Source: Eledone cirrhosa (taxonomy: Eukaryota). Taken from it: 64,000 nucleotides of DNA. Under the pieces are notes generated by a model. It saw only the letters and a program-made list of their open reading frames with translations. It had not been told where the DNA came from and ran no database searches. The DNA lies in NCBI GenBank assembly GCA_964016885.1, contig OZ024741.1, positions 132,246,001 to 132,310,000 of the forward strand, in the 5' to 3' direction. Position 1 is the stretch's first letter, and each line of letters starts with the position of its first letter. Shown one piece after another: positions 3,262-48,517 of this stretch. The translations under genes were made by a program, and so were the position numbers.

Positions 3262-3493
3262 AACGAAGGAAATGTGGTAAGGAACCAGATGGACCATAAA
3301 GCACCAAAGTACTCAATATTTAGAGTAGTAGAGTGGGTAATAGGAACGAGTAGGACCCCGACGGTGAGCTCAAGCCGTTTCGACGGCTGATTCTGTACTA
3401 AAAAAAAAATAATAATAAAATGATTTTTTTTTTTAGTCCAGAATTAGCCGTCGAAACGGCTTGAGCTCAGCCGTCGTGGTCCTACTCGTTCCT
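3262..3493. mobile_element. Fold-back element of a multi-copy family (also 23353-23541, 38135-38271, 38330-38576, 39621-39801, 41761-41962, 50660-50735, 51130-51305; single arms at 26885-26950 and 54190-54250)
   Basis: Shared aacgaaggaaatgtggtaaggaaccagg..gtactcaatac..gacggctgagctcaagccgtttcgacggc. Contains a hammerhead-like 3' half GAAA-CGGCT TGAGCTC AGCCG-TC. All copies sit in (TA)n. Confidence 0.85.
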
Positions 3494-3571
3494 GTATATA
3501 TATATATATATATATATATATATATATATATATATATATATATATATATATATATATTTATATATATATAT

Positions 3572-3720
3572 TAGAAATATAAGCTTTCACCGTATTTTTG
3601 AGAAATCTGGGGGTTCTAAACCCCACTATCAGGCTAAAAAAATTTCTTTAGTCAAAAATACGGTGAAAGCTTATATTTCTAATTTCAAACTCGCTCAAGT
3701 TTCAAAACACACTTACACAT
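3572..3720. mobile_element. Small fold-back element; same family as 25921-26087
   Basis: Inverted arms tagaaatataagctttcaccgtattttt/aaaaatacggtgaaagcttatatttcta. Confidence 0.7.
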
Positions 3721-3752
3721 ATATATATATATATATATATATATATATATAT

Positions 3753-3946
3753 ATGAAATATAAGAATCAAAGAACTGTTCAAAACATTATTGTGCTTACA
3801 GCTGTTTCCTCCGTGAGGAAACAGCTGTAAGCACAATAATGTTTTGAACAGTTCTTTGATTCTTATATTTCATATAACTGCTCTGTAAATCATCTGATGT
3901 TTTTACATTGAGCTACTTAACTTACTGGTAATAAGCTAGTAATACA
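3753..3946. mobile_element. Fold-back element truncated within a hammerhead (GAAA-C AGCT G-TA)
   Basis: Perfect arms of about 60 bp around cgt at about 3812-3814; the right arm extends further. Confidence 0.8.
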
Positions 3947-4315
3947 TTACTGCCTACCACTATTTAGGGTTTGTATAAAAAATACATTATAACTGCTAAA
4001 GGTTTTTGTGTTTTCATAACCATAAATAGTACAATTAATACTATATATATATATATATATATATATATTTATATACATATGTGTGTATATATATAATACA
4101 TATATATATAAGTATATATATATATATATATACACACACACATATAAATATGTGTGTGTGTGTGTTTAATATTAAGTATAAATCGAAGTTGTAGTCGCAA
4201 TATAGCAGATACCTATACATATGTATATGACTGTACCCAAATGGCTATTTCTTGTTCTATTTCTTATTCTATTTTCCCACGAGGGACTAACGTTCGGAAC
4301 ATTGAACTAACATTG

Positions 4316-4506
4316 CGGTGGATTGGCAGTATCGGTAGAGAGTCGGACACCAAGCTTTGAAGCATAGAGTTACGTCCCTTTATGATCTGAGTTCAAATCC
4401 CGCCGAGGTTAACTTTGCCTTTCATCCTTACGGGGTCGATAAAATAAAGTACCAGTAATGTACTGGTTAAAATGCTGGCCTTGTGCCAAAAATAAAAACA
4501 ATTATT
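4316..4506 (+). mobile_element. SINE family 1
   Basis: Full copy with A/B boxes and core. Confidence 0.88.
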
Positions 4507-4539
4507 TCAATGATATCCAGGTCCTTACTTGATAAAGCC

Positions 4540-46000: not shown

Positions 46001-46325
46001 ATCCACTGGCCCTCTCTGTGGTTCTAAGCCAGCAGAGTCATAACGACCAGGCTGCTCCTTGACAGTGTAATTAGGGGCTCTAACCCTAGTGCTGTTAGAT
46101 CGACTCTCCATATTTCTTTTCAATGGCTGACAATACCTTACCGGCGCCACTCGAATAAGGTAGTTATTTAACCCATAAATGGAGCCCTAACATGTACTAC
46201 CACCCCGGGCCAGGGCAGACCTGGGAGTCATGACAACTAAGGGGTAACTCCACATTCCCCACATCTCCTGAACTCCCGAACTGGAGACTTGCCACTGGAT
46301 GTAGTTTAATGTCATACCCAGGACA
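43003..46325 (-). mobile_element. Apparently full-length RTE-clade LINE with (TAGA)n-like tail and 14-bp TSD
   Basis: Single APE+RT reading frame; TSD tattttatatatat at 42989-43002 and 46326-46339; tail tagatatagatagatagat starts at the stop codon; about 175-nt 5' UTR. Confidence 0.93.
43017..46150 (-). pseudogene. RTE LINE endonuclease/reverse transcriptase ORF with one frameshift (about 43984) and one in-frame stop (about 43515)
   Basis: APE motifs GTLNVRT, IQEHR, GDFNA, IDFILV, SDH; RT motifs PKKGD, NYRGISL, QNGFR, FIDFRKAFDS, GVLQGDTLAP, FSDDI, FLYLG; C-terminal LLYGSETW and RLRLAGH. Confidence 0.92.
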
Positions 46326-46707
46326 TATTTTATATATATATGTGACAATCTATTTCTAGTTTATATAGCTAGGTAGGTAACTAATTAAAGTTTTAAAATA
46401 GCTCAATACAATTACAGGCTGTGACACTATAACACTGTGATATTGTATAGTGAAGGTCACCTAACCTTGTGATACTAGTAGTATTATTGTTATTATTGTT
46501 ATCAATATTGTTGTTATTATGCTTACATTTAGATGTAATTATGTATAGTATATTAAAAGCAATACATACATATATATAAAGATAAAGATTCCATGACTCT
46601 TTGTGGAGTAGTAGAGGCACCATCACACGGCGTGTCTAGAGCACATTTTAACCTGGCGGAGCCCAACCCTCACCAGGTTTGAACACAGCCGATCTTTTCT
46701 ATAGAGG

Positions 46708-47018
46708 AAGAATCGACCCCAGTAATGTATTTCAAGTATATCTTGTGGATCGATAAAATAAAGTACCAGTAATACACTGGGTAATTGCTGGCTTTGTGCC
46801 AAAAGTAGAAACAATTATATATAATATATATAGGGCGGTGAATTGGCAGTATCGGTAGAGGGTCGGATATGCTTTCCAGCATAGTTACGTCCCTTTACGA
46901 TCTGAGTTCAAATCCGGCCGAGGTTAACTTTGCCTTTCATCCTTACGGGGTCTATAAAATAAATTACCAGTAATGTACTGGTTAATTGCTGGCCTTGTGC
47001 CAAAAGTAGAAACAATTA
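46708..47018 (+). mobile_element. SINE family 1: small partial, fold-back-like copy (46708-46817) and full copy (46832-47018)
   Basis: Consensus match. Confidence 0.82.
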
Positions 47019-47039
47019 TATATAATATATATATGTATA

Positions 47040-47920
47040 AAGCGTCCGAAACTCTAATGATCCCCAGAAGACAACCGATGAACGGGAATTGCCCTTACGA
47101 GTTTCCTATGTTTCTCCCACGTGTTTTACTAATTATGTATATATTATTACACTAATAGACACGTGTTTCACTGTTAGTTAAATCATCAGTTCACTCATTT
47201 TGGAATGGATACGGTTTATTATCTTCTCTTTAAGAAGAGTTCTAAAAAAGGCATAATAATTAAGCGTTATGTATGTAGAGAGAAGAGTGTAAAAGATTTT
47301 ATCTTTTCTTCTTTCAGGTCGTGTTGTGTAAAACAACAAATGAAAAGAACTAACTTAAGTTTTTTAGTAGAGAAAGAGATAGAAAGTAATTTAGAACAAA
47401 TATTCTTTTGGAAATTATTTGGAAGAACTATTTAGGTTTAGAGTGAATGCAGGGAGAGAAGGTTGTATGAGCGAGGGTCAAGGAACGAAGGTGAATGCCT
47501 TTGGTAGCTTTTTGGGTGTTAATTAGAAACATTTTAGAAGTTGGGGTATCCAAAAGATGTTAAGGAATGATGTCTGTGGGCTGTGTGAGGGATCCGTGAT
47601 TGTGTGGGGCTTATTAGTCCGGACTTTTTCAGTTTTCTGGAAACGTGTGGACAATGGTTTCAAAAATCTATTCTTGTATTCAAACAGTTATTAGTGTAAC
47701 ATTTTTAGGATGTTCCATCTTTCGTGACCTCGTTCAATTTGAATAGCGTCAAGATCAGGATCTCAAATTCAAGGACTCAAAAGACCATTGCGTTGAGGGG
47801 GAGGGGGCACAGCGGGCCAAATGTTGGAGGGGTCTGTTATAATGCTTATTTGCAATACAGCTGATGAGTTACTATTCGTTTTAATCAAAATGCAATTAGT
47901 GGAATAAATGAACAATGAAC
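47040..47920 (-). mobile_element. Degenerate 3' fragment of a PLE related to 20849-23055
   Basis: The minus strand near 47635-47690 translates to about NCLNTR..F.NHCPHVSRK, matching DCLNTSSEFFTHCPHVAKH; a hammerhead-like motif lies downstream. Confidence 0.6.
47152..47195 (-). ncRNA. Decayed hammerhead motif
   Basis: CTGATGA..GAAA-C ACGT G-TC; stems I and II are poorly paired. Confidence 0.5.
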
Positions 47921-48088
47921 AATTTATGTATGTACTTTTATATATATATATATATATATAGTCTGTATCTCTCGCTCTCTCTCGCTCTCTCTCTCTCTCT
48001 CTCTCTCTCTCTCTCTCTCTCTCTCTCTCTCTCTCTCTCTCTCTCTCTCTCCCTCTCTCTCTCTCTCTCTCTCTCTCACTATATATAT

Positions 48089-48517
48089 AAAAGAATAGAG
48101 GTGTAACACACAAGTTATTATATATTGGTAAACGGAATAGAAAATGCTGACAAATTGTTCACAGTTGAAAAATGGTTTAATTAGGAATAAAAGAGTATTA
48201 GTGATTGTATGGGTTAGTATTCAGTTGTGGTTTTAAGTTTTTAAGTTTTTACCGGTTGCGCATTTCTAAATGCTTTTCAAAAATAATTTTGAGATAGAGT
48301 GTCCGTGCTGTTTGCTCTGATCTGAGCAAACAGCACGGACACTCTATCTCAAAATTATTTTTGAAAAGCATTTAGAAATGCGCAACCGGTAAAAACTTAA
48401 AAACTTAAAACCACAACTGAATACTAACCCATACAATCACTAATACTCTTTTATTCCTAATTAAACCATTTTTCAACTGTGAACAATTTGTCAGCATTTT
48501 CTATTCCGTTTACCAAT
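48089..48517. mobile_element. Near-perfect fold-back element (arms about 195 bp)
   Basis: Centre tttgctc-tgatct-gagcaaa at about 48311-48330. Confidence 0.9.

Follow-up and report, generated by a model that had tools for sequence, protein, structure and literature searches.

Long and short 3′ ends are paired in palindromic, (TA)n-flanked insertions resembling PLE pseudo-LTRs in a 64-kb stretch of the Eledone cirrhosa genome

Results

Two classes of 3′ end, one of each per insertion

The 3′ ends of three families of palindromic insertion in Eledone cirrhosa fall into two classes, long and short, both fixed to within a few bases, and every two-armed (TA)n insertion of these families carries one end of each class. 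The pairing, which a preliminary description of this DNA had proposed, is seen in 14/14 insertions (P = 6.1e-5 under a binomial null with p = 0.5 per insertion, that is, with ends drawn independently). All counts refer to the window, a stretch of 64,000 nt on the forward strand of contig OZ024741.1 (132,246,001-132,310,000; assembly GCA_964016885.1); feature coordinates are positions within it. Palindromic elements of this design number 28 and cover about 17.5% of the window.

The families are designated A (first noted at 3262), B (40610) and C (10443, 37899 and 3165). Using the long arm of each as query, a sensitive search of the window for all end classes adjoining TA returned only two: 8 long and 10 short ends in A, and three of each in both B and C. 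Within the window, then, the junctions of these families are bimodal and their paired insertions are all long/short, the two checks that the preliminary description had suggested; the end positions it gave each mark the TA base adjoining an element end, to within about 6 nt. In all three families the arms are inverted, head-to-head and 5′-truncated, with their 3′ ends facing outward toward the TA flanks. Every named copy has (TA)n next to its arm ends (decayed on the left of A6), and a 3′ tail of 33-86 nt is present on one end only in 14/14. The sense strand was taken from the hammerhead-like strand in A and C (see below) and assumed by analogy in B.

The long end of family A reads ..tttccttcgt(TA)n exactly at 3263, 38136 and 41762, with the variants ..tttcctctgt at 23354 and ..ctctttcgt at the mirrored 39800. 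The distance upstream to the short end is 74-86 nt (mode 80); the sequence first quoted for it is exact at 23539 and present with single-base variants in other copies. The long end is on the left and the short end on the right in A1 (3263-3494; a head-to-head palindrome, long arm in minus sense, tail 3263-3342), A2 (23354-23539; tail 80 nt, centre loop 2 nt, arm mismatches 0/51), A3 (38136-38270; centre at the natural stem-III hairpin) and A4 (41762-41961), whose arms have three private variants in common (0/56 mismatches between them against 3/51 to the next copy). The older, diverged A5 (39617-39800) is mirrored, with the short end left and the long end right. Three two-armed copies are additional to those first described: A6 (38414-38575), a subfamily copy, long left and short right; A7 (50661-50734), in which about 32 nt of the long end are joined to a non-overlapping short arm; and A8 (51130-51306), a divergent relative with a 58-nt tail on its left arm. 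Solo short arms lie on the plus strand at 54191-54247 (A9) and 26881-26951 (A10).

Family B pairs long with short in 3/3, with tails of 33-40 nt. B1 (36578-37793) is short left and long right, with a 33-nt tail and 2/136 arm mismatches against 14-16 to other copies. B2 (40610-41425; tail 40610-40649) and B3 (48090-48515; tail 36 nt, arm identity 99.5%) are long left and short right, each with 7 nt of TA homology at the short end, and B2 has a 95-bp central duplication. Pairing is again 3/3 in family C, where tails measure 67-75 nt: C1 (3166-3233) consists of about 30 nt of long-end sequence fused to a short arm with which it does not overlap; C2 (10444-10642) is short left and long right, with a 67-nt tail and a centre loop of 1 nt; and C3 (37899-38101; tail 37899-37970) is long left and short right, with a hammerhead-like core on both arms.

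The long/short design recurs in many single-copy palindromes of the window, with tails of 36-115 nt. Asymmetric palindromes were found at 3572-3718 (F1, tail 37 nt, with a relative, F2, at 25921-26088), 20420-20791 (I1, 63-66 nt), 25035-25905 (L, 800 bp, 72 nt), 32472-33082 (M, 62-63 nt), 34546-35131 (O, 36-37 nt) and 50776-51074 (T, 47 nt). A relative of I1 at 7381-7596 (I2) has a different short end, about 20-30 nt away. At 24787-24932 two near-identical 35-bp micro-palindromes show the family-F long end on both sides, a possible counter-example to the long/short rule; when family I and this long-long micro-event are added, 16/17 insertions are long plus short (P = 1.4e-4).

Three further elements combine an inverted long-ended arm with a partial tandem that ends at the short site: H (14898-15913; unit about 433 bp, tail 61 nt), J (23885-24684; unit 485 bp, tail 115 nt) and K (33968-34482; unit 319 bp, tail 40 nt). 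In all three the template continues beyond the long end, so this end need not be the distal terminus that it had been taken for.

TA homology at the short end

Short ends have more bases in common with the TA target than expected: the sum over 16 families is 51 against 17.9 (P = 4e-5). Alternating-TA homology at short ends is 7, 7 and 0 nt in B, 0-5 nt (median 3) in A and 1, 1 and 1 nt in C, where the short junction is 92% A+T over ±6 nt. The earlier characterization of the short end as a TA-rich site is thus right for B and partly so for A, but C is A+T-rich only. Homology amounts to at least 3 nt in 8/16 families and to 1 nt or less in 6/16, so pairing with the target TA is not required; nor is it sufficient, since D, H, I, L, M and O bypass longer TA runs close by. 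Longer runs are often ignored, and the notion that the short end is chosen by the best TA run was rejected. K has 10 nt of homology at its short end against 1 nt at its long end, and its inverted arm includes the 10-nt TA run yet ends at the site with 1 nt. The suggestion that target TA pairs with an internal UA stretch to guide the short end is partly supported, in that homology is enriched there, but such pairing would be neither necessary nor enough. When six arm-plus-tail and two hammerhead regions were folded, z-scores ranged between -1.23 and +0.63, which is no evidence of special structure marking the start sites.

Hammerhead-like motifs

A descriptor scan returned four full hammerhead-like cores (the two C3 arms, K at 34314-34349, and 49474) against 0 in each of 10 shuffles. 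The type-I-like motif of C3 (38037-38085, plus strand) comprises CUGAUGA..GAAA, stem III, GUA and stem I, with stem II unpaired, and the C3 short end lies 21 nt past the predicted cut. By the same scan, family A has only the GAAAC-stem III-GUC half, family B has no trace of the motif and H and J have no core. Rfam showed no hammerhead in the best 150 of 258 window matches, nor in three targeted scans that included the C3 motif; the best 150 were mostly microRNA-precursor models on hairpins and microsatellites, below gathering scores, and were taken as chance. The passages of PMC8557442 on the Naiad pLTR describe the type-I hammerhead as absent there. ARAGORN found no tRNA in the window.

Coding evidence from family D

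In a tblastn comparison of 25 of 120 fetched proteins (those >700 aa) with the window, family D was the sole match, so no ORF could be assigned to A, B or C; all their copies in the window are short fragments and no ORF there is linked to them. D1 (8236-10208, minus strand) is a 5′-truncated PLE with an RT + GIY-YIG ORF (8699-10219 frame), a long 3′ end at 8236 and an 11-bp inverted copy at its 5′ junction. D3 (55219-56262, minus strand), a PLE fragment with GIY-YIG, ends at the short site, at 55219, which lies 60 nt upstream of the long end and has 4 nt of TA homology, and carries a 32-bp inverted copy at its 5′ junction. D2 (26165-26470, minus strand) is a solo 3′ fragment with the long end and D4 (35736-35778, plus strand) a 43-nt solo short end. 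Each end can therefore head a long ORF-bearing arm (the long end in D1, the short in D3), which argues that both are primary start sites. The second arms of D1 and D3 (11 and 32 bp) end at arbitrary ORF positions with 1-nt homology; the second arm thus need not use a fixed site.

The domains matched are RVT_1 in D1 (E = 5.8e-4) and GIY-YIG in D3 (E = 5.3e-5), with both motifs in one frame. A linker, CIDKKCITC, at residue 380, ahead of GIY-YIG at 401, fits by motif the CX2-5CxxC linker upstream of a C-terminal GIY-YIG by which PMC8557442, in its passages on these clades, marks Neptune and Nematis. The closest named protein match is from Octopus vulgaris (66% identity). A second PLE (20843-23055) has no inverted copy of at least 8 nt at its 5′ end. 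The palindromes of families A-C fit PLE 3′-end fragments, and the PLE identity first proposed for them agrees with anatomy and literature, but with no linked ORF their membership is judged from anatomy.

Discussion

Relation to known elements

A tail on one of the inverted pLTRs is described in passages of PMC3846280 (Adineta vaga Pen2a) and PMC8557442 (Naiad and other clades). The endonuclease-bearing PLE pLTRs portrayed there resemble the present elements in their head-to-head inverted arms, palindromic junction and one-end extension, and the Naiad and Hydra PLEs in their (TA)n targets. Tails in these accounts measure 30-40 bp; here they are 33-40 nt in B, F, K and O but 47-115 nt in others. 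The passages concerned place the tail 'optionally' or 'often' at one end and give no count of long/short pairing. The parts of PMC11167929 that treat a purified PLE (Poseidon, from Anolis carolinensis; PAc) report that both strands are cut and extended, modelled as the work of a dimer, and that reverse transcription in vitro starts at two internal RNA sites bracketing the tail. Likenesses to PAc, as set out there, are two fixed start sites with the tail between them, use of both strands, AT-rich targets and an uncut hammerhead upstream of the start sites, to which the hammerhead-like motifs here may correspond; PAc start sites are, however, AC-rich and showed no strand difference, whereas here at least 3 nt of (TA)n homology lie at the upstream site in half of the 16 families, and the two ends within an insertion hardly ever share a site.

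The PLE tail and two start sites being already published, the asymmetry is mostly a known signature. What the window adds is the near-exceptionless pairing of long with short, arms that stop together, and a TA-like upstream site in about half of the families. In the literature covered, which lies outside subscription journals, we found neither a tally of long/short pairing nor a test of TA homology at the upstream site; Figs S1-S2 of PMC11167929, on genomic ends, may already show the pairing. These counts constrain models of how PLEs complete insertion (second strand, inverted arms and tail), and in a host so dense in such insertions the pairing can be tested cheaply genome-wide.

In LINE-1 twin priming, short base pairing lets the second target strand prime within the RNA, and an inverted segment results; its arms are non-overlapping, the first primer anneals to poly(A) and the position of the internal site varies. 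The internal priming by the second strand proposed here is the point of likeness. Here, in contrast, arms overlap in 12/14 named insertions (all except A7 and C1), the second site is fixed and poly(A) is absent, and a LINE-1-type origin was set aside. H, J and K, non-coding partial tandems of 319-485-bp units, one of them (K) with a type-I hammerhead-like core, recall the non-LTR retrozymes that passages of bioRxiv 10.64898/2026.07.22.740005 describe as non-autonomous PLE derivatives. They differ in having only 1.1-1.9 units plus an inverted arm, with no hammerhead match in H and J. As characterized there, a non-LTR retrozyme is a tandem of two or more units, every one with a complete type-I hammerhead; K has about 1.2 units and one core, and H and J have none.

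How the arms may arise

Centres and arm lengths differ between copies, yet centre loops are 15 nt or less in 12/20 cases against 1.9 expected under independent truncation, and we rejected two independently truncated cDNAs on the strength of such close centres. Private variants are often common to partner arms, and in 8/12 insertions assessed the partner arm is the nearest or tied-nearest sequence (it is not in A1, A3, A5 and B2). We lean, with modest confidence, towards reading the palindromes as pseudo-LTR fragments of PLEs or their non-autonomous derivatives, made anew at each insertion by two strands priming one RNA at protein-set sites, with pairing sometimes helping. The PLE protein (RT + GIY-YIG, probably a dimer) would cut both strands of a (TA)n tract; one DNA end would prime cDNA at a downstream RNA start site, giving the long arm with its tail, and the other at an upstream start site, giving the short arm. 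Start sites would be set mainly by the hold of the protein on the tail region, a few UA bases pairing with the TA primer and helping in about half of the families. A single RNA would usually serve as template for both cDNAs, which would break off at almost the same point and be joined end to end through 0-6 nt of homology or at a natural hairpin.

The two priming events of the preliminary description survive in part: two distinct start sites fit anatomy and literature, but the arms were not independently truncated and a single priming with fold-back is a serious rival. On that account, possible although we hold it doubtful, one RNA-primed event yields a first cDNA that folds onto itself and is copied back in the direction of the target; resolution of the hairpin follows at the other fixed site, through a TA-preferring endonuclease or through stalling where protein is bound, and TA microhomology then links it to the far end of the target. 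It predicts near-perfect centres as well as two-site priming does, and suits the common loops of 0-7 nt, the junctions of A3 and A6 at natural hairpins, the variants common to both arms, the resemblance of D1 and D3 to short fold-backs and, read by eye where the template is visible from other copies, the further reach of the long arm into the centre in A2, A3, A6 and B3. Passages of PMC8557442 attribute the tail to endonuclease resolution of an intermediate, and those of PMC3846280 take junction palindromes as self-priming. Two-site priming is also challenged by the long-long micro-event, by the two different short ends in family I and by the report, in the parts of PMC11167929 concerned, of no start-site difference between strands and of a start site not homologous to the cut DNA. 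In favour of two primings, A7 and C1 have short-arm sequence that is missing from the long arm, which fold-back leaves unexplained unless they are later deletions, as they could be; and the short-ended arm of H, J and K is longer than the long-ended one, so the short arm is not a copy of the long. For A, B and C the copied-back strand would moreover have to halt at the short site, for H, J and K at the long one; the inverted arm of K seems to extend about 12 nt deeper into the centre than the start of the forward arm, and loops of 0-2 nt are tight for a primer.

The remaining explanations are much weaker. That both arms started at the long site, and that slippage or deletion between the internal TA run and the flanking microsatellite subsequently removed one tail, we consider improbable: microhomology deletion also predicts the enrichment of TA homology at short ends, but there are no long-long and no short-short pairs among the 14, identical-arm copies A2, A4 and B3 included, the C short end is fixed with 1 nt of homology, TA runs that would serve better are passed over, and fixed double start sites are biochemically documented in the parts of PMC11167929 cited above. 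Short, non-coding, palindromic, TA-flanked elements might also be MITEs, DNA transposons that target TA and are copied whole, here with inverted repeats of unequal length. This reading is largely refuted, equal terminal inverted repeats and a conserved centre both being absent, and we give it very little credence: centres and arm lengths differ in every copy, the ends are unequal by 33-86 nt, solo arms and partial tandems occur, hammerhead-like motifs are present in A, C and K, and the two-end pattern recurs on the RT + GIY-YIG element of family D. Fold-back chimeric reads around microsatellites might be suspected where 28 palindromic elements fill so much of a window and TA tracts are hard to assemble; such an assembly or library artefact is scarcely credible, however, when divergence between arms reaches about 13%, or higher in old copies, family-specific ends recur at distant loci and the design agrees with published PLE anatomy.

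Two-site priming on one RNA admits a bolder form, which we offer tentatively as a speculation. Integration of TA-targeting PLEs might be a concerted, intrinsically asymmetric double priming in which the downstream site of an RNA always falls to one protomer and its upstream site to the other, even where a tandem or circular template places the two sites in separate units (H, J, K), and upstream UA runs might have evolved to pair with the microsatellite primer in a telomerase-like template/primer register. If true, this would account at one stroke for the tail, the inverted pLTR and the microsatellite bias, and PLEs of this kind would be a main source of perfect hairpins in octopod genomes. Passages of PMC5625713 report an exceptionally high share of hairpin-forming loci, together with hyper-editing, in Octopus bimaculoides, with the repeat family not assigned there; PLE palindromes are a candidate source of those loci.

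Paired long and short arms

The window is AT-rich animal DNA, dense in (TA)n tracts, and 28 TA-flanked palindromic elements account for 11,202 bp (17.5%) of it. Self-inverted alignments were sought in the segments between 128 merged TA tracts, and the regions were also read directly. Both confirm that the arms are asymmetric, as the preliminary description had claimed: in every named insertion of family A (A1, 3263-3494; A2, 23354-23539; A3, 38136-38270; A4, 41762-41961; A5, 39617-39800), family B (B1, 36578-37793; B2, 40610-41425; B3, 48090-48515) and family C (C1, 3166-3233; C2, 10444-10642; C3, 37899-38101) the inverted arms stand head-to-head with TA at either side, and one arm carries extra sequence. 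This tail measures 74-86 nt in A (58 nt in a divergent copy, A8, 51130-51306), 33-40 nt in B and 67-75 nt in C.

When the window was searched with each family's long arm, only two classes of end were found to adjoin TA. Long was paired with short in 14/14 paired insertions (P=6.1e-5 if each end is long with probability 0.5), a count comprising the five named A insertions, three added ones (A6, 38414-38575; A7, 50661-50734; A8), three B and three C, with two solo short A arms omitted; the expectation of fixed ends and long/short pairing was thus borne out in this window. Adding I1 (20420-20791), I2 (7381-7596) and a long-long micro-palindrome (35 bp, duplicated at 24787-24932 and entered once) gives 16 of 17, and the remaining symmetric matches of the scan (15044, 20511, 34021, 49393) are inner parts of bigger asymmetric elements. 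The copies represent separate events, since no two agree in centre or arm length. In eight of the 12 insertions assessed (A2, A4, A6, A8, B1, B3, C2, C3) no sequence is closer to an arm than its partner, which is not the case in A1, A3, A5 and B2.

A very young palindrome at 42335-42896 (89 bp at 100% identity; 231-bp unit, central (TA)24) probably has the same long/short design: on the template its outer ends are separated by ~43 nt, and one of them shares 7 nt with TA. At 49095-49753 a partial tandem (577-bp unit) with an inverted arm contains a hammerhead-like core (49474-49401); its ends have 6 and 8 nt in common with TA and are separated on the template by ~290 nt, a distance well beyond the other tails. 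At 62903-63667 lies an older partial tandem with a 484-bp unit; it too has an inverted arm, and its right end is uncertain. Twice (3166-3494, 37899-38270) a C element sits immediately left of an A element in the same orientation, with TA alone between them, which may reflect nested targeting or a shared source.

Relationship to Penelope-like elements

Families A, B and C behave as ends of Penelope-like elements (PLEs). PLE fragments with RT and GIY-YIG are present at 8699-10219 and 55608-56108; among named proteins, the 8699 product is closest to one from Octopus vulgaris (66% identity), so an octopod host is probable. These fragments belong to family D, which has an ORF with a CX4CxxC linker ahead of GIY-YIG and, as in A, B and C, two ends, here separated by 60 nt: the long one is used at 8236 and 26165, the short one at 55219 and 35778. 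At the 5′ junctions of the two ORF-bearing copies (10171-10208, 56198-56262), 11- and 32-bp inverted copies of the truncation point are followed by TA.

A descriptor scan returned four full hammerhead-like cores (both C3 arms, the partial tandem K at 33968-34482, and 49474) versus none in ten shuffles, and in family A the 3′ half only (GAAAC, stem III and GUC). Rfam called none of these cores among the best 150 of 258 window matches or in targeted scans, so the hammerhead-like call rests on the descriptor. Judged by the hammerhead-like strand, the 3′ ends of A and C face outward and the short end lies 17-21 nt beyond the predicted cut; the motif ACTCTAC..GTATTGAGT is common to their tails. PLE membership of A and C is likely; for B, anatomy alone would suggest it. 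In each of the two full C copies, which are 76% identical, the palindrome centre coincides with the 5′ base of stem I of the hammerhead (10510, 38036), perhaps the 5′ end of the RNA. A solo arm between TA tracts (39853-39949, minus strand), which contains GAAAC and a variant form of the motif seen in the A and C tails, is another related family.

The one-sided 3′ extension had been put forward as a PLE feature, and such a tail is described in the literature: PMC3846280 reports that one inverted pseudo-LTR may optionally carry a 31-bp 3′ tail, and PMC8557442 a 30-40-bp tail, often at one end only, with (TA)n as the target of Naiad and Hydra. PMC11167929 describes in vitro RT initiation at two internal sites flanking the tail, cutting and extension of both strands, and a start site without homology to the cut DNA. 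The asymmetry is real and adds one more example to a PLE signature that is already known: earlier publications cover the tail, its presence on one side and the pair of start sites. The literature searched (subscription journals and the PMC11167929 figure supplements lay outside it) yielded no pairing count and no TA-homology test. What this single 64-kb window adds is an almost obligatory pairing of long with short, tails as long as 115 nt, coupling between arm lengths and a partial homology to TA. The palindromes may give rise to the long double-stranded RNA that PMC5625713 reports for octopus.

Priming and the role of TA

Centre loops are at most 15 nt in 12 of 20 palindromes, versus 1.9 expected for two independently truncated cDNAs (loop values come from two analyses, picked by eye where discordant, with B1, H, J, K and two D ends omitted); 12 such loops were reached in 0 of 100,000 simulations of independent truncation. 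Since short loops exceed this expectation, the arms are coupled, with both extending to a shared end of a single RNA or one of them folding back. The sequence fits both readings, and we lean slightly towards two coupled primings, which would occur at sites set by the protein. Either site can start a long ORF-bearing arm (D1, 8236-10208; D3, 55219-56262), the arms of A7 and C1 do not overlap, and in the partial tandems H (14898-15913), J (23885-24684) and K the longer arm is the short-ended one; the inverted arm of K takes in the 10-nt TA run and stops where 1 nt is shared with TA. Fold-back with resolution is the less probable but serious alternative; the tiny centre loops, the A3 and A6 junctions at natural hairpins, and the D1 and D3 second arms (11 and 32 bp) stopping at arbitrary ORF positions point to it. 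The earlier proposal of two priming events per insertion is accordingly favoured by D1/D3, A7/C1 and H/J/K, but the arm coupling also fits fold-back. Asymmetric concerted priming, with one start at the downstream and the other at the upstream site of the same RNA, we regard as doubtful.

Homology, counted as the bases that the TA flank has in common with template sequence past the junction, was scored at 30 short-end junctions (16 families), with a null of positions and phases drawn at random up to 60 nt away from it. Summed over families, the lower medians come to 51 versus 17.9 expected (P=3.5e-5), for elements detected via their TA flanks and with A and C related; homology is at least 3 nt in 8/16 families (2.0 expected). 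The named families alone give 11 versus 2.7 (P=0.004), unevenly distributed (A 3, B 7, C 1), and with a 3-nt slip permitted 13 of the families give 57 versus 37.6 (P=0.005). Junctions beyond the tested set have 7 (42335), 1 (42895), 8 (49745), 6 (49095), 4 (35778) and 2 nt (62903). Guidance of priming by TA pairing, as previously suggested, thus agrees with the enrichment, but not with the 6/16 families having at most 1 nt or with the longer TA runs passed over in D, H, I and the asymmetric palindromes L, M and O. End joining, not priming, would also produce short-end homology. In H, J and K template is visible past the long end (homology 3, 3 and 1 nt); the long end can therefore be internal rather than an RNA terminus.

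A 16-nt direct duplication lies exactly at a long end of the asymmetric-palindrome family F (25921-25952), and a 12-mer is reiterated 3.6 times at the H centre (15062-15104); both are signs of polymerase re-initiation or slippage.

Other elements in the window

A second PLE-like element (20843-23055, minus strand; probable PLE frame 21149-22204) sits between TA tracts and has a GIY-YIG-like motif and CxH close to the C-terminus, features like those of the Hydra clade described in PMC8557442. A Pfam search with it gave no match, no inverted arm was found at its 5′ end, and hammerhead-like CTGAAGA..GAAAC was seen, by eye only, near 20980-20945. The LINE at 43017-46186 (minus strand, three frames), with endonuclease and RT (Pfam Exo_endo_phos_2, RVT_1), is presumably RTE-like. 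An abundant SINE-like family (~190-230 bp, frequently as tandem pairs), in which ARAGORN called no tRNA, occurs at 1328-1525, 4312-4507, 5786-6143, 6366-6838, 11132-11226, 17618-17742, 27807-28024, 35938-36135, 46747-47016, 51355-51594, 58572-59038 and 60755-61238. A minisatellite at 28146-28778 consists of four 32-mer copies and then 25 copies of a 21-mer, and at 54444-54491 (AT)16 lies between 8-bp inverted repeats.
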